A stretch of DNA of 57,613 nt, taken from positions 1 to 57,613 of the forward strand of contig NZ_UQYC01000001.1 in NCBI RefSeq assembly GCF_900545205.1, given 5' to 3'. This document shows positions 12,707-34,386 of the stretch, in pieces. The notes under the pieces were generated by a model. It saw only the letters and a program-made list of their open reading frames with translations, was not told where the DNA came from and did not search any database. Source of the stretch: an uncultured Veillonella sp. GTDB taxonomy: Bacteria > Bacillota > Negativicutes > Veillonellales > Veillonellaceae. Made by a program: the position numbers and the translations under genes. Within the stretch, counting starts at the first letter, position 1, and each line of letters starts with the position of its first letter.

Positions 12707-14151
12707 GTAGTAAATACGAAACAGTCGTTGGTTTAGAGGTTCATACAGAGCTTAAGACTAAGTCTAAAATCTTCTGTGGTTGTACCACTGAATTCGGCGG
12801 CGATCAAAATACACATGTGTGCCCAGTATGCCTTGGCTTGCCTGGTGCTATGCCTGTGTTAAATAAACAAGTAGTAGAATTTGCTATCAAAGTTGGTTTA
12901 GCATTGAACTGTGAAATTCTAAACTTTAACAAATTTGACCGTAAAAACTATTACTATCCAGATTTGCCTAAAAACTATCAAACATCTCAATATGATTTGC
13001 CAATTTGCTTAAATGGTCATTTGGACATTGAAGTAAATGGTGAAACTAAACGCATTGGTATTACGCGTATTCACATGGAAGAAGATGCAGGTAAACTTGT
13101 TCACAGTGGTAACACTATTTCCGATTCTAAATCTTCTAATGTTGACTACAACCGTACAGGTGTTCCTCTTCTTGAAATCGTATCTGAACCAGATATTCGC
13201 TCCGGTGCAGAAGCAAGAGCCTATGTTGAAAAACTACGTTCTATTTTGCAATATTTAGAAGTATCTGATGGCCGTATGGAAGAAGGTTCCTTACGTGGTG
13301 ACTGTAACGTATCCGTACGTTTGCGCGGTACTAAAGAGTTCGGTACGCGTACAGAAACTAAGAATGTAAACTCCTTAACAGCTATTCAAAAGGTTGTTGA
13401 ATATGAAGCATTACGTCAAGCTAAGTTGATTGAAGCTGGCGGTAAAGTAGATCAAGAAACACGTACATGGGATGATGCTCAAGGCATTACTATTGGTATG
13501 CGTAAGAAAGATGAAGAAAACGATTACCGTTACTTCCCTGAACCAGATTTGGTACCAATTGTAATTACTGACGAAAAAATCGAAGAAGTACGTCGTGCGT
13601 TACCTGAATTACAAGATGCTAAGATTGATCGCTTTGTATCTGAATATGGTTTGTCTCGTGAAGATGCAACAATCCTTACTGTATCTCGTAAAACTGCAGA
13701 TTTCTTAGATGCCACTGTAAAAGCAGGTGCAGATGCTAAGACTGTGGCTAACTGGATGCTTGGTGACTTGTCCAAGATGATTAATGAAAGTGGTTTAACA
13801 TTCGCTGAATCTAAAGTAAGCCCAGAAAACTTGGCTGGTATGATTGCCCTAATCGACAAAGGTACAATTTCCGGTAAAATCGCGAAAAAAGTTATCGTAT
13901 CCATGTGGGAATCCGGCAAGGATGCAGATACTATCGTAAAAGAAGAAGGCCTTGTTCAAATCACTGATACTGGTGCTATCGAAGAAATCGTTAAACAAGT
14001 TATTGCTAACAATCCACAACCAGTGGCAGACTTCAAAGGTGGCAATGGTAAGGCTATTGGCTTCTTAGTAGGCCAAGTTATGAAGGAATCTAAAGGCCGT
14101 GCTAACCCTGGTATGGTAAATGAATTGCTTCAAAAATACTTGAAAGACTAA
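12703..14151 (+). CDS. gatB: Asp/Glu-tRNA amidotransferase subunit B
   Basis: [40 protein letters not shown]-terminal YqeY domain. Confidence 0.98.
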
Positions 14152-19186: not shown

Positions 19187-20078
19187 GAACGAACATTTTA
19201 AATCTGGCTTTGTTGCCGTTGTAGGACGCCCAAATGTTGGTAAATCTACATTAATTAATGCCCTTATTGGCGACAAAATCGCTATCGTATCCGATAAGGC
19301 TCAAACAACGCGTAACCGCATTATCTGTGTATATACAGATGAAGCGAAACAAATTGTTTTCATGGATACGCCAGGTGTACATAAGCCAAAACATAAATTA
19401 GGTGAATTCATGGTAGACGCTGCCATTGAGTCCTTAAAAGAAACAGAAGCTGTTTTATTTGTAGTAGCAGGTAATGAAAAGCGCGGTCCTGGGGACAACT
19501 TCATTATTGAACAATTGAAACGTGTAAAGGTTCCTGTATTCTTAGTAGTTAATAAGATTGATACCCTCAAAAAAGAAGAGCTCTTAGAAGCCATTGTTTC
19601 TTATCAAGATGCATATCCATTTGCAGGGGTCATTCCTATTTCTGCAAAGGATAAAGAGAACTTAACTGAAGTTCTCAAGGTATTAGAGGAAACATTACCT
19701 GAAGGTCCGCAATACTTCCCAGAAGATATGATTACGGATCAACCAGAACGTTTAATTATTTCCGATATCGTACGCGAAAAAATCTTATTGTCTACACGGG
19801 ATGAAATTCCTCATGCTATCGCTGTAGATGTAGATGAAATGAAAACTCGTGATGATGGCACAACCTATATTCGCGCTACTATCTACTGTGAACGAGATTC
19901 CCAAAAGGGCATCATCATCGGTAAAAAAGGGGCCTTGTTAAAACAACTCGGTGCTGAAGCGCGTGCAGATATTCAAAAACTATTGGCTACAAAGGTGTAC
20001 TTAGACCTTTGGGTTAAGGTTAAAAAGGATTGGCGTAATAAATCTGGCATGTTATCTGAACTTGGTTATAGAAAATAA
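19179..20078 (+). CDS. era: GTPase Era
   Basis: [24 protein letters not shown] domain GIIIGKKG; start 19179 after GGGAGG. Confidence 0.97.
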
Positions 20079-20132
20079 ATTTTGTTATAATAAAGACTAA
20101 CTTGTTTTCTCAATTGTATGAAAGGAATTAAG

Positions 20133-21464
20133 ATGGATAGTGTAGATGGCCTGTTACCCATAGGGTTTGGTCTTGTATGTATATTTTTAATTAACTTTTT
20201 TGTGGTTGCAAAGTTCTCCTTTGCTCGTCTTCGTAAAGAGCATGTAGAGGATATGGATATCCTCTTGGAAAAGGATCGAGAGTTTTTATTAAGGCTCTAT
20301 CAAAACCCTGAGTATTTCTTGAATACGACTCAGTTTTTGATTTTATTCTTTATCTTAGCCCTTGCAGGAACAGGTACCTATGTATTTGATAATATCGTAG
20401 ATCAACTTGTGGCGGTATTTAATCTACATAGCACATGGATGCACTTTGTACTAGATATACTTTTATTGCTATTTATTAGCTTAATTGTTCTTATCTTTGG
20501 TGAAATCGTACCTAAAGCATTAGGCTTATCCTTCCCAACAAAGTACGTAAATACATATTGCCGTATCGTAGTAGCAGCTGGTCGCTTGGTATATCCGTTC
20601 ATTTGGATTGCAAGCAAAATCTCCACTGTTATTTTGGGCTTTTACAAAACAAAATATTTAACAGAGCTAGACCTAGTATACTCTGAAGAAGAAATCCGTA
20701 TGATGATTTCTCGAAGTCATGAAGAAGGTCAACTAGACCAAGTGGAATCTGAGTTGATCGACAATGTATTTAACTTTGTAGACCGTAGAGCCAAAGAGGT
20801 TATGGTACCTCGTCAAGATGTGGACTGTATTTTCGTTGAAGACGGTTACGATGAAGCGATGAAATTTATTCGTTCTAAAGCACATACCCGTTATCCTCTA
20901 TGTGTAGAGGATAAGGATCATATAATCGGTCTTGTTCATATTAAGGACCTCATGGAACGTCCTAATCAAGCGCGTAAGGATTTGCGTAATGTAAAACGAG
21001 ATATTTTAACTGTGCCAGAGGTAATGAAATTATCTACATTGCTACAATACATGAGAACTCGTCGTATTTATCAAGCTGTTGTTGTAGATGAGTACGGTGG
21101 TATGGTTGGTCTCGTAGGGCTTGAAGATATTATTGAAGAGCTCGTTGGCGATATTCAAGACGAACATGAACCACACTTACCAGCTAAAATTGCTTATGCA
21201 GATGGATCCTTCGAGTTTGATGGTAAGGTCCTCGTAGATGAAGTGGAAGAAATGATGGATGTTGAAATCGACGATTCTGACTCTGATACAATCGGGGGCT
21301 ATGTATTTGGTCTCTTAGAACGGACGCCAATCGTTGGTGATACTGTGGATGCATTGGGATATACCTTTGAAGTAACACAAATGCAAGGGTATCGCGTTTC
21401 TCGTATTAAAGTAACACCTTTACCTGTAGAGGAAGTAGCGGAAGAAGAACATGAAGAAGCTTAA
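20133..21464 (+). CDS. hemolysin-family CNNM/CBS/CorC protein (Mg2+ homeostasis-like)
   Basis: DUF21 TM region (FGEIVPK), EVMVPR, HTRYP, VVDEYGG, EDIIEELVGDIQDEH, CorC domain DTIGG. Confidence 0.92.
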   Translation: MDSVDGLLPIGFGLVCIFLINFFVVAKFSFARLRKEHVEDMDILLEKDREFLLRLYQNPEYFLNTTQFLILFFILALAGTGTYVFDNIVDQLVAVFNLHSTWMHFVLDILLLLFISLIVLIFGEIVPKALGLSFPTKYVNTYCRIVVAAGRLVYPFIWIASKISTVILGFYKTKYLTELDLVYSEEEIRMMISRSHEEGQLDQVESELIDNVFNFVDRRAKEVMVPRQDVDCIFVEDGYDEAMKFIRSKAHTRYPLCVEDKDHIIGLVHIKDLMERPNQARKDLRNVKRDILTVPEVMKLSTLLQYMRTRRIYQAVVVDEYGGMVGLVGLEDIIEELVGDIQDEHEPHLPAKIAYADGSFEFDGKVLVDEVEEMMDVEIDDSDSDTIGGYVFGLLERTPIVGDTVDALGYTFEVTQMQGYRVSRIKVTPLPVEEVAEEEHEEA

Positions 21465-22155
21465 TGGTGGTTTTAACACACCTGCCATCGTCATCAGTCG
21501 AAAAAAATATAAGCTATACTCCGTATTTACTTTTATCACACCTAGCTTAGGGCTTATTCGTGCATCCATACCGCATAAGCGTATGATGACCATGCGTAAC
21601 AGTTCCTATTTACGTCCCTTTAGTGCCATGTATATCACAGTGGTACCTGATGGTGAATATGTAAATGTGACGCAAATTGATGGTTCCTATGTGGTAGAAT
21701 CGTTAGACCTAAATTTAGATAATATTGCTTACGCTGCAGTAGCGAGTGAGCTCATCCAAGAACTATTTGCTATGTATGATGTAGATCGCAAGGTGTTTGA
21801 TACTGTTGTAAACTATTCTAAGCAAATTCGTCGCCGCAATGTACAGCTCGGAACGATAATGCTTGGGTGGCAATTGCTGTCCTTAGCGGGGGTTGTGCCA
21901 AGTGCTAATGCTTTTTCACATCAAGATGGTATTGAACCATTCTGGATGCAGGTTAAAGAAACAACAAATCTTAGCATTTCTCGTTCTGTGAAAGCTGGAT
22001 TACCTCAAATTCTCGCTTATCAGTGGGGCGAAGACACGCCTATAGAACTTCCAAAAATAATTTGGAAGGAACTTGAAAAGCTACTATTTGCATACTGCGA
22101 GCAAGAAATCGGTAAACCATTACAAAGCGTTAAGTTTTTAAATTCCATAATTTAA
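21451..22155 (+). CDS. recO: DNA repair protein RecO (divergent, no zinc-finger cysteine cluster)
   Basis: N-terminal OB-like AIVISRKKY..FITPSLGLIRA..LRPF, C-terminal KPLQSVKFL; position downstream of era. Confidence 0.75.
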   Translation: MKKLNGGFNTPAIVISRKKYKLYSVFTFITPSLGLIRASIPHKRMMTMRNSSYLRPFSAMYITVVPDGEYVNVTQIDGSYVVESLDLNLDNIAYAAVASELIQELFAMYDVDRKVFDTVVNYSKQIRRRNVQLGTIMLGWQLLSLAGVVPSANAFSHQDGIEPFWMQVKETTNLSISRSVKAGLPQILAYQWGEDTPIELPKIIWKELEKLLFAYCEQEIGKPLQSVKFLNSII

Positions 22156-22162
22156 TAATAGT

Positions 22163-22197
22163 AAAAGGCAGTTTGAGAAATCAAACTGCCTTTTATT
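22163..22197 (+). terminator. intrinsic terminator after recO
   Basis: AAAAGGCAGTTTGA-GAAA-TCAAACTGCCTTTT. Confidence 0.9.
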
Positions 22198-22221
22198 GGA
22201 ATATATATTATGAGGTACTAT

Positions 22222-22743
22222 ATGGATAAAATATTTTCTTCGTTACCTGTAGAAAAAATAAATGAAGATAAAACTTTAGATTTACAAGAAATTCAACAAA
22301 TATACGATTTCCTTTTAACTAATGACTATTATATATTTTCTGATTATGGGTTAGTAAATAAGTTATTTCAAACTATGGTCTTGAACAATCGTTGGGATCC
22401 TAAGATAGCACTTAGATACTTTGAATACTTATGTTTTCTAAGTTGGGAATATGAAGCTATCATTCTTAGAGATCTTTTATTAGATAATCATATTAGCCTA
22501 GCTGGGGAATTTTGTTTAGATACAGAATTAGTAAAAGATGGACTAAGTTATTTTAGAGATGATGCTATTTGGAGGGGTAAAGATTATTATAGTGACACTA
22601 TTCCGGCATGTATGTCTAAATGGGCCATTTATTATGATGAACAAGATCAAAGGTTTCATAAAGTGAAACCGTCAATGATAGAAAATATTGTTATTGAGGT
22701 AATTGACGCTGAAAAAGGTATTTATATGATTGAAAAAAGATAA
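22222..22743 (+). CDS. hypothetical soluble acidic protein
   Basis: AT-rich ORF, ATG after GAGG; no family recognised. Confidence 0.7.
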   Translation: MDKIFSSLPVEKINEDKTLDLQEIQQIYDFLLTNDYYIFSDYGLVNKLFQTMVLNNRWDPKIALRYFEYLCFLSWEYEAIILRDLLLDNHISLAGEFCLDTELVKDGLSYFRDDAIWRGKDYYSDTIPACMSKWAIYYDEQDQRFHKVKPSMIENIVIEVIDAEKGIYMIEKR

Positions 22744-22770
22744 TGCAAATAGACAAATGTACATCTGTAA

Positions 22771-22819
22771 TTGACACTTTTGATAACAATTATTTATAAT
22801 ATAACAATGTTATATTATA
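22771..22819 (+). promoter_or_regulatory. sigma70 promoter with overlapping palindromic operator
   Basis: TTGACA-N18-TATAAT; perfect inverted repeat TATAATATAACA-A-TGTTATATTATA at 22795-22819. Confidence 0.65.
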
Positions 22820-22839
22820 TGTTTTTATAGGAGGTCATT

Positions 22840-23643
22840 ATGCAGCTTTTGGGAAATCTCAAAATACATTTTCTAGCGCTCGTACTAACCGTAGTCGCTG
22901 AATTTATAGGCATAAAAAAACTAGGTCCTGTTGTATTATTGCCATTATTGTACACATTGATTCTAGGTTTATTAATTTCTATTCCTAAATTTAAAATTCT
23001 TACTATTAAACAGATGGAAAAATCTGCAGATTATATCGGTATTGCCGTTATGATCTTGATGGTAAAAGTAGGTTTAGGTATTGGTCCAAATCTTGGTATT
23101 CTTACAAGTGCAGGCTGGGCATTGTTATTACAAGAGCTTGGTCATTTCTTTGGTACTATTGTATTCGGTTTACCTGTAGCTTTGTTAGTAGGTATGCGTC
23201 GCGAAGCAGTAGGTGCATGTTACTCTGTAGACCGTGAACCGAATGTAGCGATTATTATCGACAAATTCGGTTTTAGCTCTCCAGAGGGCCGTGGTGTTAT
23301 GGGCATGTACATCTGTGGCGTTCTTATTGGCGCAATGTGGTCCTCCGTATTGGCAGGTATGCTGGCACAATCTGGTTGGTTCCATCCATTGGCATTGGCT
23401 ATGGGTGCTGGTGTAGGTAGTGCTAGTATGATGGCTGCCGCTACAGCTCCAATCATTGCAGTATATCCAGATTATGAACAACAAATTATGGCTCTTGCTG
23501 GGGCAGCAAACTTATTAACTACTGTTCTAGGCGTATACTTTGGTCTATTTGTTTCTTTACCTGTTATGGAAAAAACATACAATTTCTTTACAGGTCGTAC
23601 CCGTGAACAAGATTTAGCAGAGGAGGCAGCACATCATGAGTAA
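22840..23643 (+). CDS. DUF3100-family membrane protein
   Basis: AEFIG, LLPLLY, LLLQELGH, GMRREAVGACYSVDREP, ALAMGAGVGSASMMAA motifs; multi-TM. Confidence 0.85.
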   Translation: MQLLGNLKIHFLALVLTVVAEFIGIKKLGPVVLLPLLYTLILGLLISIPKFKILTIKQMEKSADYIGIAVMILMVKVGLGIGPNLGILTSAGWALLLQELGHFFGTIVFGLPVALLVGMRREAVGACYSVDREPNVAIIIDKFGFSSPEGRGVMGMYICGVLIGAMWSSVLAGMLAQSGWFHPLALAMGAGVGSASMMAAATAPIIAVYPDYEQQIMALAGAANLLTTVLGVYFGLFVSLPVMEKTYNFFTGRTREQDLAEEAAHHE

Positions 23644-24097
23644 AAGCGAAAAATTAACACAATTTGTCATCGTTATCTGTATTGCTGCTATCATCACTGC
23701 AGTAGGTAATGTAATGGATGGCAAACATCTATTTAGCGATAGTTTAGTTGGCGTAGCTATCTTGGCAGTCCTTGCTACAATTGGCGCTTTGATTTCTAAC
23801 TTGCCATATGCTAATAAATTGCCTATGGTATTCTGGGTATCTTTAGTTGGTGTTATTGCATCCTTACCAGGTATGCCTGGCCAAGAATGGATTATTGCTA
23901 AAACTAGTCAAGTTACATTCCTTGCTACAACAACACCTGTACTTGCTTATGCAGGTTTATCCTTAGGTAAAGACCTAGGTGCATTCCGCCGCTTATCTTG
24001 GCGTATTATTCCTGTTGCACTAGCTGTAACAGCAGGTACTTTCATCTGTGCAACAGCATTAGCACAAGTAGTACTTCATTTAGAAGGTTTAATTTAA
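23636..24097 (+). CDS. small membrane protein, partner of DUF3100
   Basis: Overlaps the DUF3100 stop; FLATTTPVLAYAGLSLGKD, GTFICATALAQ; ~5 TM. Confidence 0.85.
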   Translation: MSKSEKLTQFVIVICIAAIITAVGNVMDGKHLFSDSLVGVAILAVLATIGALISNLPYANKLPMVFWVSLVGVIASLPGMPGQEWIIAKTSQVTFLATTTPVLAYAGLSLGKDLGAFRRLSWRIIPVALAVTAGTFICATALAQVVLHLEGLI

Positions 24098-24230
24098 TAC
24101 TAAATCATAATGTTAGATGTCTTAATTATGTTAAGATATACATATAGATTTATATTTTCATAAGATATCTATACATTAGGATTCAATGATCGACCGTATT
24201 TTATACGGTCGATTTTATAAAGGAGATATT

Positions 24231-25550
24231 ATGAGCCGTATGACAAAGGAAGAAGTTAAAGAACGTGTTTGTAAAGCAATTGTTGATGCACAACCACGTT
24301 TACGAGAATTAGCAGAATCTATTATGGCTGAACCTGAATTAGGTTTTAAAGAGGTAAAAACATCTAAAAAGGTTCAAGCTATGTTTGATGAACTTGGCAT
24401 TTTTTATACTACAGGCCATGCACTGACAGGTGTAAAAGGTAGAATGAAAGGCCGAGATAGTAAATATACGGTTGCCATGGTTGGGGAATTAGATGCCATT
24501 CTGTGTCCTCGCCATCCTCGTGCTGATGATTTAACAGGGGCTGCCCATTGCTGTGGTCATAATGTACAAATTACTAATATGTTTGCTGTAGCTATAGGCT
24601 TACAAGCGGTGATGGACGAATTAGCAGGCGATGTTGTACTATTTGCCGTTCCGGCAGAGGAAATGATTGAAATTGATTACCGCAATAAATTGCGTGAACA
24701 AGGAAAACTCAAGTATATGGGCGGTAAACAACAGCTCATCTATGAAGGTGCTTTCGACGATATCGATATGGCTATGCAAATGCATGTGGAGACTGCCAAA
24801 ACTCCAGCTGGTGAAATGGGGCTAGGTAGCACCTCTAATGGTTTTGTATCTAAGCTGATTGAATATCACGGCAAGGTAGCTCATGCGGCTCAAGCACCTC
24901 ATGAAGGCATCAATGCTCTTAATGCTGCTTTGATGGGTGTTATGGGGGTTAACTCCATTCGTGAAACTTTCAAAGAAAGCGATTATTTCAGATTCCATCC
25001 CATCATTAATCAAGGGGGTACATTGGTAAATTGTGTGCCTGATTATGTTCAAGTTGAAAGCTATGTGCGTGCCTCTAATATTGAAGCTATTGTAGATGGT
25101 AACCATCGTGTTAACAGGGCATTAAAAGCCGGTGGTGATGCAGTAGGGGCTACATGTATTATCAATGACCTACCAGGCTATTTACCGATGCGTAATGATG
25201 AACGTATGAATGCTCTATTACGAGAAAATTCAAACCCTATCTTTGGTGAAGCCAATGTATACCAAGGCCCACATATTACAGCTAGTACAGACATGGGGGA
25301 CGTATCTCACTTGATGCCGGTTATCCATCCATGGGTTGGCTGTATCAGTGGTGTACTACACAGCGCAGAATACGAAATCTCTGTACCTGATGTAGCTTAC
25401 ATTAAAACAGCACAAGCCTTGGCTATGACAATCGTAGACTTATTATATGATGATGCAGCAGGCGCTAAAGATGTATTAGACAACTTTACACCAGTATTAA
25501 ATAAAGAAACTTATATTGAACTCTTAGATCGTATTGCTAAGGGGGAATAA
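24231..25550 (+). CDS. M20D-family amidohydrolase
   Basis: PELGFKE, GELDA, HCCGH, PAEE, MQMH, GKVAHAA..PHEGINAL, STDMGDVS, LHS metal-ligand motifs; start after AAGGAG. Confidence 0.92.
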   Translation: MSRMTKEEVKERVCKAIVDAQPRLRELAESIMAEPELGFKEVKTSKKVQAMFDELGIFYTTGHALTGVKGRMKGRDSKYTVAMVGELDAILCPRHPRADDLTGAAHCCGHNVQITNMFAVAIGLQAVMDELAGDVVLFAVPAEEMIEIDYRNKLREQGKLKYMGGKQQLIYEGAFDDIDMAMQMHVETAKTPAGEMGLGSTSNGFVSKLIEYHGKVAHAAQAPHEGINALNAALMGVMGVNSIRETFKESDYFRFHPIINQGGTLVNCVPDYVQVESYVRASNIEAIVDGNHRVNRALKAGGDAVGATCIINDLPGYLPMRNDERMNALLRENSNPIFGEANVYQGPHITASTDMGDVSHLMPVIHPWVGCISGVLHSAEYEISVPDVAYIKTAQALAMTIVDLLYDDAAGAKDVLDNFTPVLNKETYIELLDRIAKGE

Positions 25551-25553
25551 AAT

Positions 25554-25599
25554 AAACCACCTATCGAAGATGAATTGATTATCTTTGGTAGGTGGTTTA
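25554..25599 (+). terminator. intrinsic terminator after the amidohydrolase
   Basis: AAACCACCTATCGAAGAT...ATCTTTGGTAGGTGGTTT. Confidence 0.75.
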
Positions 25600-25661
25600 A
25601 AATTTTATTAAACAGTTTTTGAAAAAGTCACTAATTGTTAACTAATAGAAAGTATAGCTTT

Positions 25662-26039
25662 ATGTATAGCAATTTATTCCATTCAGATGCGACACTGTAT
25701 ATAGTTATTGGTTTACTACTATCTAACTATATGTTAATTAAAAATCAACGTAATAATCTCAAAAAATTTATCATTGTTTTTTTATTTAGTAATATATGGG
25801 GAGGAGTAAATCTTTATTCTATGTATGAGCATATTAATGGTATTGAAAAAATCAATACATTATGCACATTACTCCTTATTTTGGCTGGTGAATATATATT
25901 TTATTATCGTTATAAGAAAGGAACATTGGAAGGAGTATCTAAAATATATTTTGATATAAATAATTCTTTATCTATTATTATAATTGTTTCTTTTAGTATT
26001 ATTGGAATAGTTTTTCTACTCTGGGAACTATTGAAGTGA
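25662..26039 (+). CDS. small ~4-TM membrane protein (array family A, copy 1)
   Basis: Hydrophobic ORF, AGAAAG RBS; shares IE..N.L..L.....G.YI.....K.GTL motif with 27946-28311. Confidence 0.75.
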   Translation: MYSNLFHSDATLYIVIGLLLSNYMLIKNQRNNLKKFIIVFLFSNIWGGVNLYSMYEHINGIEKINTLCTLLLILAGEYIFYYRYKKGTLEGVSKIYFDINNSLSIIIIVSFSIIGIVFLLWELLK

Positions 26040-26044
26040 ATATT

Positions 26045-26215
26045 ATGAAAAAATTATTTTTCTATGCATTTGCATTATTTTCATTGACTTCAATTATATA
26101 TGGAATGGCGTATGATTATATGAACGGTGCTGAAATTCACTATGATTTTTTTGGTGCTGGATTTGTTAGTTGGTTAATATTCTTTGGTATATTGAAAGCA
26201 ATTTTAAATATATAA
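26045..26215 (+). CDS. 56-aa 2-TM microprotein (array family B, copy 1; not in ORF track)
   Basis: Hand translation MKKLFFYAFALFSLTSIIYGMAYDYMNGAEIHYDFFGAGFVSWLIFFGILKAILNI*; supported by an ungapped paralog immediately downstream. Confidence 0.75.
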   Translation: MKKLFFYAFALFSLTSIIYGMAYDYMNGAEIHYDFFGAGFVSWLIFFGILKAILNI

Positions 26216-26248
26216 ATAATATTAATTCAAAATTTGAGGTTTGGTTAA

Positions 26249-26419
26249 ATGATATAGCTAGTATTTAATTTGATCTTTTTGATTCTATTATTCTCTATTA
26301 TGGGAAAAATAATATATGACTATATTAAAGGCCATAATATAGAATATAAATCTTATAGCCTTACTTTTGTATGCTGGCTTGTTATTTTTGCTTTATTAAA
26401 ATTAGTTTTTGAGCTGTAA
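26249..26419 (+). pseudogene. 56-codon paralog of 26045-26215 with TAG at codon 3 (family B, copy 2)
   Basis: GAGGT RBS + ATG ATA TAG...; MI*LVFNLIFLILLFSIMGKIIYDYIKGHNIEYKSYSLTFVCWLVIFALLKLVFEL*. Confidence 0.7.
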
Positions 26420-26476
26420 GCCTTGAAAAAAATATTTCAACAGGTGAAGAAGTAAAAATGAGGTGTAATAGAATCA

Positions 26477-26806
26477 ATGAAATTAATATATTATTTTGCT
26501 ACTATATCCTTGTTTTTAGCATTTGCCTATAGTGTAACTCAATATATCCGAAGATCCAATAAGGACATAAATGAAAAATATAGACTGATTAGTTTGGGTA
26601 TATTTTTATTTGTGCTTTTTACAGATTTAAAGTTCTTAGATACCTTAAATAAAGAATTTAAGTACCTAATTGAGTTTTTATTGTTATCATTTAGTACATA
26701 CATGTTTTCACTAATTTTTAAAAATAGTGATAATAAATGGACTTATTATTTATTTTCTCTATTTACTATATTGTTATTTTTAATGGCTATTTTATTCTCA
26801 ATCTAA
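26477..26806 (+). CDS. small 4-TM membrane protein
   Basis: GAGGTG RBS; four hydrophobic segments; very AT-rich. Confidence 0.75.
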   Translation: MKLIYYFATISLFLAFAYSVTQYIRRSNKDINEKYRLISLGIFLFVLFTDLKFLDTLNKEFKYLIEFLLLSFSTYMFSLIFKNSDNKWTYYLFSLFTILLFLMAILFSI

Positions 26807-26934
26807 CTTTATATTAATCAAACATGGGTTATTAGTGTATTTATATATTGTGTATATTAAAAATATAATAAGATTGATTGTATGATGAGGACATTAGTAT
26901 GACTTTTATAATTAAAGAAATTGGATAATCATAT

Positions 26935-27387
26935 ATGAATGTAAAAATTGTTAAGTTATTAAATTTAATAAGGTTTAGAATAATTGGAACAATTTTTTTA
27001 GCAATTACTATAACAGGTAATGCTATTGAGGCGACTGCACCGAATGTAGACTATAGGTTTATTATCCCTATATTAGTTATGGGTGGCGTGTTATTAACAC
27101 CATTAATTCGTGGACGTCGTATTGTTAAGCGTATATATAGAAGAGGGATAAATCAGTATAATTCGAGATTAATTGTATATATATTATTTATTTTAGGGTT
27201 TCACAATAAATTAGTTGGTATACCTATAGCGAAAAAGAGTATTTATGGTTGGTTATTTTTGGGATTTTGGGTTATAGGTTCTATTATTACTTTTGTATGG
27301 ATGTATTCAAATAATGTTCCTATATGGATATTATGCATTTCTATGATTATAGCTATTTATAAAATACTAAAGTCATTATATAGTTAG
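26935..27387 (+). CDS. small multi-TM basic membrane protein
   Basis: Hydrophobic segments with an Arg-rich loop; an in-frame upstream ATG (26899) is separated by a TAA. Confidence 0.7.
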   Translation: MNVKIVKLLNLIRFRIIGTIFLAITITGNAIEATAPNVDYRFIIPILVMGGVLLTPLIRGRRIVKRIYRRGINQYNSRLIVYILFILGFHNKLVGIPIAKKSIYGWLFLGFWVIGSIITFVWMYSNNVPIWILCISMIIAIYKILKSLYS

Positions 27388-27496
27388 GGTTTTGTCAATT
27401 TATTTGAATAGAACATTCTATATTTTAATATGATTTAACATGACTGTTATTTTATAAAAGAGTTATTTAAAGCTAGTTAGGAGATAAGTCTGCTAA

Positions 27497-27880
27497 ATGA
27501 TAAATAAGTTTGATTATACTTTTGGAGTAGTATTATTTATTTTGGTTTGGGATCTTCGTGCGTATTATAAAAATGTATTACAACGGAATTTAACTCGTAA
27601 GCAGCAAGAATGGGTAAATAAAATGCGATACCCACATTTATATAAATTTACAAATTTAGTAAGTATAGTGGCTGGAATTGTTTTTTTAATATTCTATATG
27701 TTCTTTAATTTTGGATATGCTTATTTTTATCCATTAGGTGCAGTCCTAGTAATTCATTTTTTTAAAGATTTCATTAGAAATATCCAGAAAAAGGAATCTA
27801 GTACATATAAAGATGGACGTAATGAAAATTATATATACATAGTTGGAATTATTTTTATCTTATGGATAATATTTCATTAA
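27497..27880 (+). CDS. small ~4-TM membrane protein
   Basis: AGGAG RBS; hydrophobic segments separated by basic loops. Confidence 0.75.
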   Translation: MINKFDYTFGVVLFILVWDLRAYYKNVLQRNLTRKQQEWVNKMRYPHLYKFTNLVSIVAGIVFLIFYMFFNFGYAYFYPLGAVLVIHFFKDFIRNIQKKESSTYKDGRNENYIYIVGIIFILWIIFH

Positions 27881-27945
27881 TTTAATAATGCTATTAAATT
27901 AAACTTTTATTCTATGGTTGTAATATCTCCTTAGAAAGCAGACGA

Positions 27946-28311
27946 ATGGAAAAACAAATAGTAAATATATTTTTACTTTTAGGTTTTAATTATTATATGA
28001 TTAAATCTTGGGGTACACGGAAGGTTACAATTTTAACACTAATTGGCAACTATTTCTTAATCAGTATTTTAATAGAATCGTATTTTGGGTTACCTAAATT
28101 CATTGAGGACTTTAATGCACTATTTATGCTTGGAATAGGTATGGTAGGTACTTATATCTTATGGCGTAAAAATAAAGCTGGAACACTAACTGAGTATGAA
28201 AAAAGAGGATGGATTCTGACTCGTACTTTCTTAGCATTATTTGTCTTATCTGTATTAGTAGGTGTATTAGTTTTTTTGTTTATGAAGTATATTTATGGGA
28301 TATATATCTAG
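27946..28311 (+). CDS. small ~4-TM membrane protein (array family A, copy 2)
   Basis: AGAAAG RBS; paralog of 25662-26039. Confidence 0.78.
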   Translation: MEKQIVNIFLLLGFNYYMIKSWGTRKVTILTLIGNYFLISILIESYFGLPKFIEDFNALFMLGIGMVGTYILWRKNKAGTLTEYEKRGWILTRTFLALFVLSVLVGVLVFLFMKYIYGIYI

Positions 28312-28366
28312 AACTAGGTTTATTGCTTTTAATAGTTCTAGTCAGACAATTATATATTCTGAAAGA

Positions 28367-28396
28367 TTGACATTCTTCCCCCTGTATTGCTACAAT
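28367..28396 (+). promoter_or_regulatory. promoter of the glyQS leader
   Basis: TTGACA-N18-TACAAT with TG extension. Confidence 0.6.
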
Positions 28397-28412
28397 ATTG
28401 TGTATAATATAT

Positions 28413-28613
28413 GCGATGAAGCAGAGTAGTAAACCTCTCTAGCGAGTGAGGATGGTGCAAGCTCACATTTGGTTGAAGGCGCTGTAGAGCATTGGCAGGA
28501 ACGCAGGCATCTGTTAGTAAAGGCCAACATAGAAAAAAGAGGGCGCAAGCCAAATAGGGTGGAACCGCGGGTATACTCGTCCCTGTAACGTTTTTCGTTA
28601 CAGGGACTTTTTT
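28413..28613 (+). ncRNA. glycine T-box riboswitch
   Basis: GCGATGAAG..AGTAG stem I start, GGTGCAAG distal motif, GAA-GGC specifier (Gly, 28478-28480), T-box AGGGTGGAACCGCG (28556-28569), terminator GTCCCTGTAACG/CGTTACAGGGAC + U6; precedes glyQ. Confidence 0.95.
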
Positions 28614-28665
28614 GTTTGTAACGAAATGGTTGATTTTATGTCGGTTGTGTAAAGTGGAGGCAGCA

Positions 28666-29541
28666 ATGACATTTCAAGAGATTATTTTAAATCTACAAAA
28701 ATTCTGGAGCGATCAAGGTTGTATCGTTCAAAATCCATATGACATCGAAAAGGGTGCAGGTACAATGAATCCTGCAACATTCTTGCATGCTATTGGTCCT
28801 GAACCATGGGCGGTATGTTATGTAGAGCCTTCTCGTCGTCCAGCAGACGGTCGTTATGGTGATAACCCTAATCGTTTGTTCCAACATCATCAGTTCCAAG
28901 TTATCGTGAAACCATCTCCAGATAATATCCAAGAATTATATTTACAATCCTTGGCAACTCTTGGTATTCACGCTGAAGATCACGACATTCGTTTCGTAGA
29001 GGATAACTGGGAATCTCCAACATTGGGCGCTTGGGGCCTTGGTTGGGAAGTATGGCTTGACGGTATGGAAGTAACGCAGTTTACATATTTCCAACAAGTT
29101 GGTTCCATCGACTGTAAACCAGTGTCTGTAGAGATTACATACGGTTTAGAACGTTTGGCTATGTACATTCAAGGCGTAGAAAACGTATATGATCTTAAAT
29201 GGAATGAAAACGTTACATACGGTGACGTTTGGCATGCTAACGAAGTTGAACAATCTGTATATAACTTTGAATTAGCAGATACAGATATGCTCTTCAAATT
29301 ATTTGATATGTATGAAGCAGAGGCAAAACGCGTTTGCGAAGCAGGTTATGTATTACCAGCTTACGACTATGTATTGAAATGTTCCCACACATTCAACTTG
29401 CTTGATTCCCGTGGTGCTATTTCTATCAGTGAACGTACTGCTTTCATCGGTCGCGTACGTGCATTAGCTCGTATTTGTGCACAACAATACCTTGCTAAAC
29501 GCGAAGAATTAGGTTTCCCACTTTTGAAAGGAGATAAATAA
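28666..29541 (+). CDS. glyQ: glycine--tRNA ligase alpha subunit
   Basis: [47 protein letters not shown]; start after GGAGG. Confidence 0.98.
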
Positions 29542-29542
29542 G

Positions 29543-31594
29543 ATGGCAAAGGATTTATTATTTGAAATCGGTGCAGAAGAAATTCCTGCCGGCTTTATGC
29601 CAAATATCTTAGGTCAATTGAAAACATTGGCTGAAACAAAATTAAATGATGCCCATCTTCCTTTTGAAAGCATCGCAACCTACGGTACACCACGTCGTTT
29701 GGCTCTTATCGTGAAAGGTCTTGCTGATGCATCTGCTGAGATCAGCGAACGTCATAAAGGTCCTTCTGCATCCATCGCCTATGATGCTGACGGCAATGCT
29801 ACAAAAGCAGCTATCGGCTTTGCTCGTGGTAAAGGTCTTGATGTAGCCGATCTCGTTGTAGAAGACGGTTATATCTATGCTGAAACTAAAACTGCCGGCG
29901 TACCTGCAAAAGATATCATTACCGACATGTTGCCACAATTGATTACAGGTCTTAACTTCCCTAAATCCATGCATTGGGGCAATTTAGATGCTAAGTTTGT
30001 ACGTCCAGTACGTTGGCTTGTAGCATTACTTGATGAAGAAGTAATTCCTGTAGAATTTGCTACTGTAAAATCTGGTAATGTAACACGTGGTCATCGCTTC
30101 TTAGGGGCTGATGAAATCACTATCAAAAATGCAGCATCTTATGTAGATACATTAAAAGAAAACTTTGTTATGGTTGATCAAGACGCACGTCGTGAATTAA
30201 TCTCCAAACAATTACATGATATTGCAGCTTCTAAAAACGCATCCATCGTTTGGGATGATGATTTGTTAGAAGAAATTAACTATCTTGTTGAATGGCCTAC
30301 AGCATTGTGTGGTGGTTTTGAAGAGTCCTACTTGGCACTTCCTGATGCAGCCATCATTACACCAATGAAAGACCATCAACGTTACTTCCCATTGATTGAC
30401 CAAGACGGCAAATTGTTGCCAATGTTCTTAACAGTGCGCAATGGTTCTGACCATTCCATCGAAGTAGTTCAAGCTGGTAATGAACGCGTATTGCGCGCTC
30501 GTCTTGATGATGCTAAATTCTTCTTTAACGAAGATCGCAAGAAACCTCTTATCGACCGTCAAGATGGTTTGACTAAAATCGTATTCCAAGAAGGTCTTGG
30601 TAACTTAGCAGATAAAACTGAACGTTTACTTAAATTGGGCCGTGTATTTGGCGAAGAATGTGGCTTGCACGAAGATGCAGCTGTTGTATTGGAACGTGCT
30701 ACAGAGCTTGCTAAAACTGACCTTACTACAGGTATGGTTACAGAGTTCACAGAATTACAAGGTGTAATGGGTAAAGAGTACGCTTTACTTGATGGTGAAT
30801 CTCCTGAGGTAGCAGAAGCTATTTTCGAACAATATTTACCACGTTTTGCAGGTGATGTATTGCCTCAAACTGAAGCAGGTAAAGTATTGTCCATCATCGA
30901 TAAAGTAGATAATATCGTAGCTACTTTCAGCCGTGGATTAATTCCTACAGGCTCTCAAGATCCATATGCATTGCGCCGTCAAACAATTGGTATCTTGAAC
31001 ATCTTGCTTGGTAGCGAATGGAATATTAGCTTGCGCCCAATCTTCAAAGCATCTATGGAATTACTTAATGTACCAGCTGAAAAACAAGAGGAATTGCTTG
31101 GCCAAGTAGAAGAGTTCTTCACACTTCGTTTGAAAAATATCTTCCTTGATCGCGAAGTTCCTCATCATGTAATCGACTTGTTGTTGTCCAACAATGAATT
31201 GTCCGTTGCTGATGCAGAAGGTCTTGTAAACGCATTGTTAGCAAATCGCATCGATGAAAATGTTGAGCTTGTTCAAGCTTATACTCGTATGTACAATCTT
31301 GTAAAAGATGTAGAATATACAGGCGTTAATAGCGACTTGTTGAAAGAAGATGCTGAAAAAGCATTATTCGAAGCTGCTTCTAAAGCATCTGAAGCAAGTC
31401 TTGCTGCATGGGAAGCTAATGATTATGCTGCAGTTGTAGCAGTTCCAGCTACTTTGGTTCCAGCCATCAACAAATTCTTTGAAGATGTAATGGTTATGGA
31501 TAAAGATGAAGCTATTAAAGCTAACCGTTTACAACTTGTTCGCTTAGCGTACAACGTAATGGCTATTATCGGCGATATTAGTGCATTAAAATAA
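29543..31594 (+). CDS. glyS: glycine--tRNA ligase beta subunit
   Basis: LLFEIGAEEIPA, TPRRL, FVRPVRW, EFTELQGVMG, PTGSQDPYALRR, NRL. Confidence 0.98.
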   Translation: MAKDLLFEIGAEEIPAGFMPNILGQLKTLAETKLNDAHLPFESIATYGTPRRLALIVKGLADASAEISERHKGPSASIAYDADGNATKAAIGFARGKGLDVADLVVEDGYIYAETKTAGVPAKDIITDMLPQLITGLNFPKSMHWGNLDAKFVRPVRWLVALLDEEVIPVEFATVKSGNVTRGHRFLGADEITIKNAASYVDTLKENFVMVDQDARRELISKQLHDIAASKNASIVWDDDLLEEINYLVEWPTALCGGFEESYLALPDAAIITPMKDHQRYFPLIDQDGKLLPMFLTVRNGSDHSIEVVQAGNERVLRARLDDAKFFFNEDRKKPLIDRQDGLTKIVFQEGLGNLADKTERLLKLGRVFGEECGLHEDAAVVLERATELAKTDLTTGMVTEFTELQGVMGKEYALLDGESPEVAEAIFEQYLPRFAGDVLPQTEAGKVLSIIDKVDNIVATFSRGLIPTGSQDPYALRRQTIGILNILLGSEWNISLRPIFKASMELLNVPAEKQEELLGQVEEFFTLRLKNIFLDREVPHHVIDLLLSNNELSVADAEGLVNALLANRIDENVELVQAYTRMYNLVKDVEYTGVNSDLLKEDAEKALFEAASKASEASLAAWEANDYAAVVAVPATLVPAINKFFEDVMVMDKDEAIKANRLQLVRLAYNVMAIIGDISALK

Positions 31595-31641
31595 TATATT
31601 TTGTATTAGATACATTAAACTTTTACAGAAATATATGAAAG

Positions 31642-31668
31642 AAGAGGTACCATTTGGTACCTCTTTTT
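31642..31668 (+). terminator. intrinsic terminator after glyS
   Basis: AAGAGGTACCA-TT-TGGTACCTCTTTTT. Confidence 0.85.
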
Positions 31669-31762
31669 GCTTTTACGAAGAATATACATATTTTATGCAG
31701 GAATTTTTGAGATCATGGCGAATATCTTATAATATACAAAGTTGTATGAGGAGATAAATGTC

Positions 31763-32149
31763 ATGAATCATGATGAATTATATAAAGCCTTATGTAAGGT
31801 GCCAAACGGCAAAGAAAAGTCTCGTGATAAAATAATTATAGAATTATATATGCGATCTCAAGGAGCATCTCAAAAACAATTAGTAGATGCTCTTAATATG
31901 CGTCCCGCTACAGTATCGGAGCAGACGGATATACTCATTGAATTAGGGTATGTCACAAAGCATATTGATTATATGGATAAACGAATTTCTGTAGTAGGAC
32001 TTACTGAAGAGGGGAAACGACTAGGTAAATCATTACTACATTCGTATGATCAATTTCTTAATGTACTATTTTCTGATTTTTCTGATGATGAAAAAGATGA
32101 TTTATACCGCTTGTTAGGTAAGTTAAAGCGCCCAATCTTAAGTAAATAA
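31763..32149 (+). CDS. MarR-family transcriptional regulator
   Basis: wHTH SQKQLVDALNMRPATVS..LIELGYV..DKR..LTEEG; C-terminal FSDDEKDDLYRLL. Confidence 0.85.
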   Translation: MNHDELYKALCKVPNGKEKSRDKIIIELYMRSQGASQKQLVDALNMRPATVSEQTDILIELGYVTKHIDYMDKRISVVGLTEEGKRLGKSLLHSYDQFLNVLFSDFSDDEKDDLYRLLGKLKRPILSK

Positions 32150-32223
32150 TTAGTTTCTCAAAATTATATAGAAAATACTTGCGAACAGTACGTGATTTAT
32201 GATACTATATTGCTGTTAATTTG

Positions 32224-32263
32224 AGACAGTCCGCTGCCTATAAGGTGTAGGTATTGAATGTCT
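32224..32263 (+). promoter_or_regulatory. putative L19 leader (autoregulatory RNA hairpin)
   Basis: AGACA..TGTCT outer stem with GTCCGC internal loop and TGCCTATA/TGTAGGTA inner stem just upstream of the rplS RBS. Confidence 0.65.
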
Positions 32264-32280
32264 GCAAACAGGAGGAAACA

Positions 32281-32622
32281 ATGAACATTATTAACGTACT
32301 TGAACAAGAACAACTTCGTACAGACATCCCTACTTTCCGCGCTGGTGACACAGTTCGCGTACACGTAAAAGTAGTGGAAGGTTCTCGTGAACGTATCCAA
32401 GTATTCGAAGGTTTGGTAATTAAACGTCAAAACGGTGGCGTACGTGAAACTTTCACAGTTCGTCGTATTGCATCCGGTGTAGGTGTAGAACGTACATTCC
32501 CACTTCACAGCCCACGCTTAGCTAAAATCGAAGTTATGCGCCGTGGTGTTGTTCGTCGTGCTAAATTGTACTACTTACGTAACCTTACTGGTAAAGCTGC
32601 TCGTATTCGCGAAAAACGCTAA
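32281..32622 (+). CDS. rplS: 50S ribosomal protein L19
   Basis: [48 protein letters not shown]. Confidence 0.99.
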
Positions 32623-32627
32623 TGTTC

Positions 32628-32660
32628 ATAAAAGGCTGCCGTCGGCAGCCTTTTATTTTT
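32628..32660 (+). terminator. intrinsic terminator after rplS
   Basis: ATAAAAGGCTGCC-GTC-GGCAGCCTTTTAT. Confidence 0.88.
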
Positions 32661-32690
32661 GCTAAAATTTAGATGTAGAAAGGAAATACT

Positions 32691-33596
32691 ATGGCAGATT
32701 CACCTATCGTACATTGGTTCCCTGGACATATGGCGAAAGCCACACGTATGATTACGGAGTATATCAAAAAGGTAGACGTAGTTATCGAGTTACTCGATGC
32801 GCGTATTCCTCGTTCTAGTGCCAATCCTGTAATCACTGAACTGGTTGGTCAGAAACCGCATATCGTATTGTTAAATAAAGTTGATTTAGCAGATCCTAAA
32901 GCCACAAAGGAATGGACTGAATTCTTTACTAAACAAGGTATCACTGTATTGGCTATCGATTCTAAGTCTGGCAAGGGTAATAAGAAATTAATATCTACTG
33001 TAGAACGTTTGAGCAAGCCTATCATTGATCGTTGGGTAGCTAAAGGCATTCGTAGTCGTTCTGTACGTACTATTATTTTAGGTATTCCTAATGTGGGTAA
33101 ATCTACGTTGATTAACTCCTTAGCTGGTTCTGCAGCAACGCGTACAGCTAATAAGGCTGGTCATACCCGTGGTCAACAATGGGTTAAAATCGGTAAAAAT
33201 CTTGAATTGCTTGATACACCAGGTGTATTATGGCCTAAACTAGAAGACCAACGCGCAGCGGCTCGTCTTGCTATGACTGGTGCCGTTTCTGATGATGTGT
33301 ATGATTTAGAGCATGTCATTAAACAATTAATTAATCACTTATTGATGAATACACCAAAGATTTTGGTGGAACGATATAAATTAAAAGAAGAAGAGATGAC
33401 GGATGTAGATACGATTCTTGAAAGTATCGGCCGTCGTCGTGGTTGTCTCGTAAGTGGTGGCATAGTAGATTTTGATAAAGCACGCCGCATCATCTTGCAA
33501 GATTATCGTAATACTAAACTTGGTACAATTACACTCGACAAAGTAGATGAAGAACCATATTATCCTGAAGATGGTGAGGAAACACAAAATGGATAA
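32691..33596 (+). CDS. rbgA: ribosome biogenesis GTPase RbgA/YlqF
   Basis: [42 protein letters not shown]. Confidence 0.96.
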   Translation: MADSPIVHWFPGHMAKATRMITEYIKKVDVVIELLDARIPRSSANPVITELVGQKPHIVLLNKVDLADPKATKEWTEFFTKQGITVLAIDSKSGKGNKKLISTVERLSKPIIDRWVAKGIRSRSVRTIILGIPNVGKSTLINSLAGSAATRTANKAGHTRGQQWVKIGKNLELLDTPGVLWPKLEDQRAAARLAMTGAVSDDVYDLEHVIKQLINHLLMNTPKILVERYKLKEEEMTDVDTILESIGRRRGCLVSGGIVDFDKARRIILQDYRNTKLGTITLDKVDEEPYYPEDGEETQNG

Positions 33597-34386
33597 GGAT
33601 GTTTTTTCTAAATTAAAGGTTGCAGAAATAAAGGCTCTCTTTGAAACTGAACAAGCCTTAGAAATTTTGCCATTGGCTCAAGAGGACGATCGTAGCTCTG
33701 TACAAAAATTGGCCGCTTCTTATATTAAACGTCAAGAAAAAGAGTTAAAAGAACAGCAACGTCTCATGGGTATGTATGACTATGAAGGCATGTTCTATGA
33801 TCAAGGGATATATCATGTGGCTGGTGTTGATGAGGTAGGCCGTGGTCCTATTGCAGGGCCTGTGACGGTAGCTGCCGTTATTTTGCCGCCTATGACATTA
33901 ATTCCAGGCCTTAATGACTCTAAAAAGCTAACAGAAGAAAAGCGTGAGGCCCTCTATAATATCATTATGGACGAAGCTGTAGCCGTAAGCTGCATTTCCT
34001 ACGGCCCAGAAAAGATTGATGAGCTAAATATCTATGAAGCAACGCGACAAGCGATGTATGAGGCGATTCGTACGCTCAGCGTTCCAGCAGAAGCAGTAGT
34101 GGCTGATGCTATGAAATTGCCTGATTTGACGATTCCCGTTGAATCTATTATTAAGGGCGATAGTAAAAGCGCCAATATTGCTGCCGCATCAATCATTGCA
34201 AAGGTTACGCGAGATCGATATATGAAGAGCCTCGATGAAGAATACCCTGGTTATGGATTCGGCATTCATAAAGGCTATTATACGGAGTTACACAAAGAAG
34301 CTGTTGAACAACAAGGTGTAACACCACTTCATCGTAAGAGCTTTGAACCCATTAAATCTATCGTACGTTGGGTTAAACCTGAGTAA
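33589..34386 (+). CDS. rnhB: ribonuclease HII
   Basis: AGVDEVGRGPIAGPV, LNDSKKL, IKGD..IAAASIIAKVTRD, HKGY, HRKSF. Confidence 0.96.
   Translation: MDKDVFSKLKVAEIKALFETEQALEILPLAQEDDRSSVQKLAASYIKRQEKELKEQQRLMGMYDYEGMFYDQGIYHVAGVDEVGRGPIAGPVTVAAVILPPMTLIPGLNDSKKLTEEKREALYNIIMDEAVAVSCISYGPEKIDELNIYEATRQAMYEAIRTLSVPAEAVVADAMKLPDLTIPVESIIKGDSKSANIAAASIIAKVTRDRYMKSLDEEYPGYGFGIHKGYYTELHKEAVEQQGVTPLHRKSFEPIKSIVRWVKPE

Follow-up and report, generated by a model that had tools for sequence, protein, structure and literature searches.

What do seven small, AT-rich genes for membrane proteins do in a run of their own between housekeeping genes of a Veillonella chromosome, with no toxin gene beside them? 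The genes, here named g1 to g7, lie within a 57,613-nucleotide stretch of DNA from an uncultured Veillonella sp. (assembly GCF_900545205.1, contig NZ_UQYC01000001.1, positions 1 to 57,613 of the forward strand), which as a whole is called the window below. An original prediction, made from the letters of the window without database searches, had proposed that they form a toxin-less orphan immunity array, with CDI toxins among the possible targets, and the comparative evidence reported here supports this proposal and narrows the source of the toxins to contact-dependent growth inhibition (CDI). In characterised CDI systems, CdiA delivers a C-terminal toxin on contact and the matching CdiI protein in the recipient neutralises it (PMC3150448; PMC11630599). 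The island that carries g1 to g7 is very probably an orphan cdiI array derived from, and located at, a CDI (two-partner secretion) locus, because it occupies the same site as such loci in other Veillonella genomes, because all seven gene families are found directly 3′ of cdiA genes, and because it retains short pieces of cdiA 3′ ends.

The island stands out from its surroundings by composition, with a GC content of 0.185-0.30 per 400-nt window across 25600-28399 against 0.39-0.43 in the flanks on either side. Its seven open reading frames (ORFs; 25635-28311) are all co-oriented on the + strand and 49-150 codons long, and each encodes a protein with 2-5 hydrophobic segments, i.e., multi-pass by hydropathy, according to our own crude Kyte-Doolittle scan, which is not a trained topology predictor. 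The co-oriented, AT-rich genes with 2-5 membrane segments that had been described from the letters alone are thus recovered, and so are both of the paralog pairs: g2 and g3 are 37% identical over 46 aa (E 7e-10), and g1 and g7, a weak match by BLASTP (38% over 34 aa, E 7e-4), are supported by hhalign as distant paralogs (probability 85.5%, E 5.7e-6, 70 columns). None of the seven proteins matched Pfam or NCBIfam above the cut-off, where only sub-threshold noise was seen. The ORF list of the island contains no recombinase, toxin, transporter or integrase, in agreement with the earlier description, and a tblastn search of the island with CdiB, five CdiA proteins and eight CdiA C-terminal regions (CTs) gave nothing below E 0.3, so that protein-level remnants of cdiB or cdiA were rejected.

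The same site was surveyed by searching 81 species-level Veillonella genomes (labelled G, with loci labelled L and contigs labelled C) with the DNA from the M20 peptidase-like gene on the left to glyQ on the right. The census is based on the 43 genomes in which, among the matches listed (79 weaker ones were unlisted), a single contig contains both flanks. Two of these 43 sites are empty (G015 and G019; interval ~0-40 bp after normalising), 24 hold an array only (1.5-5.8 kb), and 17 hold cdiA (6-12.3 kb). Among the 17 long loci, in all of which at minimum the cdiA 3′ end was inspected, 16 carry cdiB and cdiA within 9-12.3 kb and one (G009) carries a 5′-truncated cdiA. The long form runs from a 621-aa ShlB/FhaC-type transporter through a 2227-2394-aa exoprotein and one or two small AT-rich ORFs to glyQ; in L014, the 621-aa ORF matches ShlB (3.8e-84), POTRA_3 (2.7e-17) and POTRA_2 (1e-13), i.e., two POTRA domains, and the 2394-aa ORF matches TPS (1.3e-41) and Fil_haemagg_2 (1.1e-30). 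The homology common to all locus states stops at 25607 on the left, which is also where blastn homology with cdiBA-bearing loci stops, and the latter resumes at 28364-28367 on the right (28327 against L014). Since the homology of the window stops and resumes at the same borders, the island sits exactly at the CDI site.

Other contents were also observed, both here and elsewhere in these genomes. At the same site, L017 (G009) has a 1670-aa 5′-truncated cdiA without cdiB, ending in an Endonuclease_NS_2 C-terminus and followed by a pair of YezG-like immunity genes. Nuclease-type toxins and soluble immunity proteins are therefore found at the site as well. The array of L045 (G096) contains transposase-like ORF fragments, and L029 (G021) is rearranged, with its M20 and glyQ flanks on different contigs. 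Up to three or more further TPS/CdiA loci are present in Veillonella genomes at other conserved sites (L031-L034, L095-L151), e.g., beside a trpE-like gene, with AT-rich adjacent ORFs of their own and sometimes with downstream orphans and cdiA fragments.

The genes of the island do have homologs next to toxin genes. All seven families recur directly 3′ of a CdiA gene, with a homolog at or within ~40 nt of a cdiA stop, and several of these homologs overlap it. The product of g1 is 90% identical over 112 aa to that of L016 10123-10488 (G020), which overlaps the end of cdiA including its stop; blastn homology to G020 begins only at 25707, indicating that the native 5′ end of g1, as in G020, has been lost, and the replacement N-terminus is common to other genomes. 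For g2, the homolog at L148 1306-1476 (G093; 73% identity) starts 15 nt past the cdiA stop, and g3, as a member of the same paralog family, is 43% identical to that same ORF. The early in-frame stop that had been noticed in the array is borne out for g3: behind the ortholog start ATG at 26249, codon 3 is TAG (26255-26257) where G003 has CAG, and the sole remaining start is a TTG restart at 26270 that could give 49 aa. The g4 protein is 84% identical to the product of an ORF that has a 4-nt overlap with the cdiA stop in G004, G006, G023, G058, G060 and G071, and g4 loci from the named genome collection were assigned to Veillonella in 33 of 33 cases. A g4-type gene is also present in G061 and G062, there behind an interrupted cdiA. 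In these two loci (L147 and L140, respectively), cdiA is broken ~100 codons before its normal end, and a separate 98-aa ORF that corresponds to the Gly-rich toxin end precedes the g4-type immunity gene.

The remaining three families also have cdiA-adjacent relatives. Six of 72 metagenome loci have relatives of g5 at 63-69% identity, 32-38 nt past an ORF of 973-1322 aa with an open end, and the two of these upstream ORFs that were scanned both contain hemagglutinin repeats; more distant homologs (28-29% identity) follow CdiA in G043 (L055) and G070 (L134). The g5 superfamily comprises just 25 representatives at E <= 0.001 among 1.84 billion, showing that the families of the array are narrow. 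The homolog of g6 at L014 10588-10971 (G010; 68% identity) overlaps the cdiA 3′ end, and in L088 (G063) that of g7 (66% identity) begins before an open CdiA tail of 505 aa has ended. At the level of sequence, such relatives at 63-69% identity establish family membership for g5, g6 and g7, not the exact toxin that corresponds to each allele.

Three cassettes retain traces of the toxin gene itself. The cdiA 3′ stretches of 49 nt before g4, 41 nt before g6 and 13 nt at g7 are, judging from the blastn alignments, deletion or recombination scars. Window positions 26429-26812 align with L024 10031-10415, which includes the end of cdiA (10083) and the start of cdiI (10080), and positions 27456-27880 align with L014 10547-10971, likewise with the end of cdiA (10598) and the start of cdiI (10588). 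The third scar is contained in the alignment of 27933-28450 with L088 1488-2007 (in M20-to-glyQ orientation), a segment with the start of cdiI at 1501 and the end of cdiA at 1519, and a CT remnant is found at the same place in L080.

The content and order of the arrays vary between genomes as mosaics, rather than being fixed across strains. The G007 array reads X-g2-g3-g4-g5-g6-g7′-166aa-remnant-g1-g2′-g2″, that of G016 consists of X, a 152-aa gene, g4, g7 and a 149-aa gene, and that of G003 of X-g2-g3-g4 and a 163-aa relative of g5. G067, the closest relative among the matches listed (95% DNA identity from M20 to g7), has an extra 166-aa cassette before glyQ. Clustering of the small ORFs of 17 loci gave ~11 recurrent cassette families, six of which are present in the window. 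Among the 72 metagenome loci, g5 is preceded by a g4-type gene in 18, by a member of a 146-152-aa family absent from the window in 25, by a CdiA tail in 6 and by a 61-aa cdiA fragment in 3. No recurring repeat was found at the cassette junctions, which share only short chance matches in AT-rich DNA, and integron-like or repeat-bounded cassettes were rejected as an explanation. Exchange by homologous recombination through the conserved flanks and shared cassettes would be the simplest engine of this turnover. Within families, the ratio of nonsynonymous to synonymous substitution (dN/dS; Nei-Gojobori median over distinct intact copies, 20 to 1666 pairs per family; Table 1) shows that the g1, g2 and g4-g7 families are under purifying selection (0.15-0.35). 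The diversifying character that the original prediction ascribed to the array thus holds for gene content and for co-diverged paralog pairs, and does not hold within the families.

The genome to which the window belongs (92% complete, 126 contigs) appears to lack the weapon. Searches with TPS, ShlB and the first 1195 CdiA residues found no match in it, and the same searches found three loci in G010, two in G004 and one in G007. Across the genus, 56 of the 81 genomes have a TPS match; no such match was obtained for 13 of the 24 array-only genomes, and 10 of these 13 are at least 99% complete. At least four further cdiI-like genes, at two other sites and with no toxin beside them, are present in the genome of the window. 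One is the ORF at 22210-22743, whose product is 59% identical over 129 aa to that of an ORF 17 nt past a CdiA-like gene in G042 (L150) and has no Pfam match; this resemblance makes the ORF a probable orphan cdiI, solitary and of a non-membrane type. The other site is a second toxin-less array on contig C40 (~11858-13350; L261 1501-2989) with three co-oriented AT-rich membrane-protein genes and no adjacent cdiA; the 131-aa and 130-aa genes are 59-64% identical to the cdiI after CdiA in G007:C8, and the 142-aa gene is 85% identical to the ORF after CdiA in G021:C18. Searches of the same genome with a 260-aa cdiA-adjacent protein of G010:C6 gave no match, and those with a 327-aa protein gave weak partial matches only (E 8.7e-6 to 5.5e-4). 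It is proposed that the lineage lost cdiB and cdiA, and kept or collected immunity cassettes that would derive from at least six toxin types.

The CdiA proteins of the congeners are alike at 92-100% over the first 1200 alignment columns and have unrelated C-terminal stretches, which is the signature of polymorphic toxins. Across the genus, 50 of 57 cdiA 3′ ends have an ORF starting at -70 to +120 nt, with different CTs next to different ORFs, and 41 of these 50 adjacent ORFs encode at least one hydrophobic segment. A VENN-like motif, S-A-[VIT]-[DE]-N-N-[WY]-L-T-H, is present in some CdiAs, among them those cognate to g4 and g2; from most of 66 tails it is absent, or the tails are too short to reach it. 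The Pfam PT-VENN family has no match on the CdiAs, and four CdiA C-terminal regions have no Pfam match either. Between the CTs cognate to g1 (L016, G020) and g7 (L088, G063), identity is 53% over 228 aa; the two are the same in the N-terminal part of this stretch and have diverged in the last ~160 residues. A paralogous pair of immunity genes is thus coupled to a paralogous pair of CTs, which indicates that toxin and immunity diverged together. A modular layout is seen in CT pairs (L016/L088; L014, L055 (G043) and L134 (G070)), with an identical N-terminal part, different last 130-160 residues and a different immunity gene for each partner, resembling the entry-domain and toxin-domain layout of E. 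coli CDI.

The paired CTs, that cognate to g4 included, end in Gly-, Ala- and Ser-rich stretches followed by charged tails. The g4-cognate CT was modelled with five helices at residues 49-146 (pLDDT 71-83), from a shallow alignment of 6 rows. A Foldseek search of this model against the PDB gave nothing at E <= 0.001, and most of the sub-threshold rows, which were not counted, belong to integral membrane proteins or alpha-pore-forming toxins. In the Atlas search, 'glycine zipper' (0.90) and 'colicin-like pore-forming' (0.89) came up as leads, neither of which exceeds the reliability level of the tool. The domain has 15 matches, all on hemagglutinin-repeat proteins, and the named ones are from Veillonella. 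A complex predicted for g4 and the C-terminal 126 residues of the G004-type CdiA scored 0.30 against a mark of 0.32, in a run without controls, and speaks neither for nor against the pairing. The hydrophobic immunity proteins, the 41 of 50 adjacent ORFs, the Gly-rich CT ends and the five-helix model together lead us to infer that the matching toxins may insert into or act at the cytoplasmic membrane, where the immunity proteins would block them.

A mechanism can be proposed on this basis. Neighbouring Veillonella cells would present CdiA and pass on its C-terminal toxin when they touch, and the cytoplasmic membrane would be the place of action of the toxins matching the cassettes. The small membrane proteins of the array would sit there as well, each neutralising the toxin type it matches, so that a cell without a weapon could survive among armed kin. 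This presupposes expression of the genes, a toxin still in circulation for each allele to match, and neutralisation by direct binding. Given the identity of the genes as orphan cdiI, protection in the present day is likely.

Several observations weigh against this reading. A convincing promoter for the array was not found by the promoter scan, as its 31 promoter-like sites are at background level (26.6 +/- 4.2 in shuffles). Among listed RNA sequencing runs, none contained 25500-28450, and three runs, whose kind is a guess, contained small shares (0.11-0.15). The nonsense codon of g3 and the missing original 5′ end of g1 are damage within the window itself, and the internal stops in homologs of g7 (13/72), g6 (8/70) and g3 (5/30) show that some cassettes decay. 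The cdiB-proximal DNA was not kept, given that homology with cdiBA-bearing loci stops at 25607, and at 92% completeness of the genome a cdiA could sit on an unassembled piece. The matching toxins of g5-g7 may be unsampled or extinct, since these proteins are only 63-69% identical to their relatives and immunity proteins ~60% identical give partial cross-protection in E. coli. Membrane action, finally, is inferred from indirect leads, the CTs having no Pfam match and no significant PDB fold match.

Part of this evidence would fit an array that is a relic, left behind by a cdiBA deletion and slowly decaying without present benefit; the damage to g3 and g1, the internal stops in 1/12 to 13/72 of the full-length homologs depending on the family, and the promoter signal at background all speak for it. 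However, six of the seven ORFs are intact and their families show dN/dS of 0.15-0.35, the array-only state is found in 24 of the 43 contiguous loci with different cassette sets, and the same genome retains cdiI-like genes at two other sites. The recurrence of the array-only state with different cassette sets requires gain as well as loss, and we consider the relic explanation improbable. Immunity against agents other than CDI, i.e., secreted bacteriocins or toxins of other secretion systems, with a merely positional link to cdiA, is less probable still. Small size and several membrane passes are typical of bacteriocin immunity proteins as well, and the proteins of the array match no curated family. 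Against it stand the start of homologs of all seven families at or within ~40 nt of a cdiA stop, the cdiA 3′ scars in the window and the pairing of the g1/g7 paralogs with paralogous CdiA C-termini, and no bacteriocin or other toxin gene was seen in the arrays inspected. That the seven proteins belong together as a single membrane complex or as a housekeeping operon, as their co-orientation, close spacing and uniform membrane character might suggest, is hardly credible in view of the variable content and order, the empty site in G015 and G019, the occurrence of single families alone after cdiA and the 25 representatives of the g5 superfamily.

The features of the locus are collected in Table 1.

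Table 1. Features of the array, its flanks and the solitary candidate orphan gene, with positions in the window; dN/dS and internal stops refer to the family of each gene.
Feature	Position	Strand	Basis or remark	dN/dS	Internal stops in full-length hits
Solitary AT-rich (GC ~0.28) 177-aa soluble ORF	22210..22743	+	between recO-like gene and DUF3100 gene		
M20/M25/M40 peptidase-like gene, 454 aa	24186..25550	+	left anchor of variable site; Pfam Peptidase_M20 1.2e-8, M20_dimer 7.8e-6		
Intrinsic terminator of M20 gene	25553..25599	+	20-pair stem, then T run		
AT-rich island, putative orphan cdiI array at cdiBAI site	25608..28363	+	GC; blastn borders vs L014, L015, L016, L024; site census		
g1, 134 aa, 4 hydrophobic segments	25635..26039	+	alternative start ATG 25662	0.25	1/12
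g2, 59 aa (56 aa from ATG 26045), 2 hydrophobic segments	26036..26215	+	putative cdiI family, homolog after CdiA in G093	0.19	0/66
g3, damaged paralog of g2	26249..26419	+	49-aa ORF 26270-26419 from TTG	0.59	5/30
Putative scar upstream of g4, ~49 nt of cdiA 3′ end	26429..26476	+	blastn		
g4, 109 aa, 4 hydrophobic segments	26477..26806	+	putative cdiI family cognate to 2227-aa CdiA, six genomes	0.15	2/100
g5, 150 aa, 5 hydrophobic segments	26935..27387	+	putative cdiI family; homologs after CdiA in metagenome contigs	0.28	4/92
Putative scar upstream of g6, ~41 nt of cdiA 3′ end	27456..27496	+	blastn		
g6, 127 aa, 3 hydrophobic segments	27497..27880	+	putative cdiI family cognate to 2394-aa CdiA, G010	0.22	8/70
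Putative scar, last cdiA-CT codons overlapping g7 start, 13 nt	27933..27945	+	blastn		
g7, 121 aa, 3 hydrophobic segments	27946..28311	+	putative cdiI family, homolog after CdiA tail in G063	0.35	13/72
Right-edge hairpin	28297..28360	+	core arms 28308-28316 / 28333-28341		
glyQS promoter-like site	28367-28396	+	11/12 positions match		
glyQS T-box leader	28407-28587	+	RF00230 76.5 bits, E 4.7e-17		
glyQS leader terminator	28579-28607	+	terminator scan		
glyQ	28612-29541	+	glyS downstream; glyQ 93-99.7% identical across congeners		

Both edges of the island bear the structures that the original prediction had pointed out. On the left is the terminator of the M20 gene, which itself is 79-98% identical among the 15 congener loci containing it. 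On the right, the hairpin with its core at 28308-28341 has a minimum free energy of -16.7 kcal/mol (z -2.45; equalled by 3 of 200 shuffles), its left arm overlaps the g7 stop codon, and no T run follows that would form a U tract; from these features it is possibly a weak transcript end. Beyond it, the right flank element (28367..28607, +) precedes glyQ. An Rfam scan of 20000-34000 at the gathering threshold gave no matches; the glyQS T-box scores below the gathering score of 93 for RF00230, which is why it was overlooked at the default threshold, and it surfaces at an E-value threshold.

How far the array resembles known systems can be judged from published reports. Classic orphan cdiA-CT/cdiI modules follow an intact cdiBAI locus, are exchanged between strains and have been proposed to act as an immunity repertoire against the CdiA of neighbours (Poole et al. 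2011, PMC3150448). As in those modules, cdiI genes of several toxin types are stacked at a cdi locus. In contrast to them, each module being described with a cdiA-CT fragment, usually with VENN, the window retains only 13-49 nt of cdiA per cassette in three cassettes and has no cdiBA at the locus, its host is a diderm Firmicute, and its seven products are predicted integral membrane proteins of unnamed families. Fragments of cdiA are retained in other Veillonella arrays, e.g., L018, L055, L177, L198 and L199. The AID clusters of Bacteroidales are orphan immunity arrays against type VI secretion system (T6SS) effectors that sit on mobile elements or beside a recombinase (Ross et al., 10.1101/471110). 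The two have in common that orphan immunity genes are held by cells without the matching toxins in a human-associated community, AID protecting against contact-dependent antagonism; in the Veillonella case, however, the toxins are of the type Vb (T5b) CdiA kind, no recombinase or recurring junction repeat was found, and the chromosomal site between housekeeping genes is fixed.

The toxins invite a comparison of their own. The E. coli CDI ionophore toxins act on the membrane, combine an entry part at the N-terminus with a five-helix part at the C-terminus, and have specific, highly polymorphic CdiI partners, of which those ~60% identical give partial cross-protection only (Halvorsen et al. 2024, PMC11630599). 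The Veillonella CT pairs likewise share an N-terminal part and diverge C-terminally, and the g4-cognate CT was modelled with five helices, but they are known from sequence and a model, with no Pfam match and no Foldseek match at E <= 0.001. In P. aeruginosa, orphan cdiI genes are reported to protect a strain against the CdiA of another isolate, which was stated to be the first demonstration with natural strains (10.64898/2026.09.30.755834); those orphans lie in the cdi locus of a CDI-competent strain, whereas the carrier of the window seems weaponless. CdiB-linked filamentous-hemagglutinin toxins were already recorded in Veillonella and Selenomonas by Zhang et al. (2012, PMC3482391), whose accessible text on type V secretion system (TPS) toxins gives no account of immunity-only arrays, the M20-glyQS locus or these families. 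A literature search in which subscription journals were thinly covered likewise found no account of immunity-only arrays at the Veillonella cdi site or of these families, and no co-culture CDI competition was found for Veillonella.

Orphan immunity as a defence is already known, for CDI in proteobacteria and for T6SS in Bacteroidales, so that the novel, undescribed system of the original prediction turns out to be of a known kind, CDI immunity. What is new is its toxin-fragment-free, weapon-less and mobile-element-free form at a fixed site, its lineage and its protein families. With the principle already established, the gain is one of breadth and of a clean natural example rather than a new principle. 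A wider proposal, that could as well be right as wrong, is that roughly half of the sampled Veillonella lineages are 'shield-only': they would have discarded the CDI weapon at the M20-glyQS site and assembled, by recombination with DNA of their kin, a changing immunity repertoire against undescribed, Veillonella-specific, membrane-acting CdiA toxins, forming a T5b counterpart of the Bacteroidales AID clusters without mobile element or recombinase.

Veillonella colonises the human mouth and gut early and in abundance, and the locus may help to explain which of its strains coexist there. The locus supplies about a dozen unnamed membrane immunity families, several of them already paired with toxin C-termini, and genetic tools for Veillonella exist. 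At one chromosomal site, a strain may thus be armed (cdiBAI), shielded only (an immunity array) or neither, which is a simple and testable picture.

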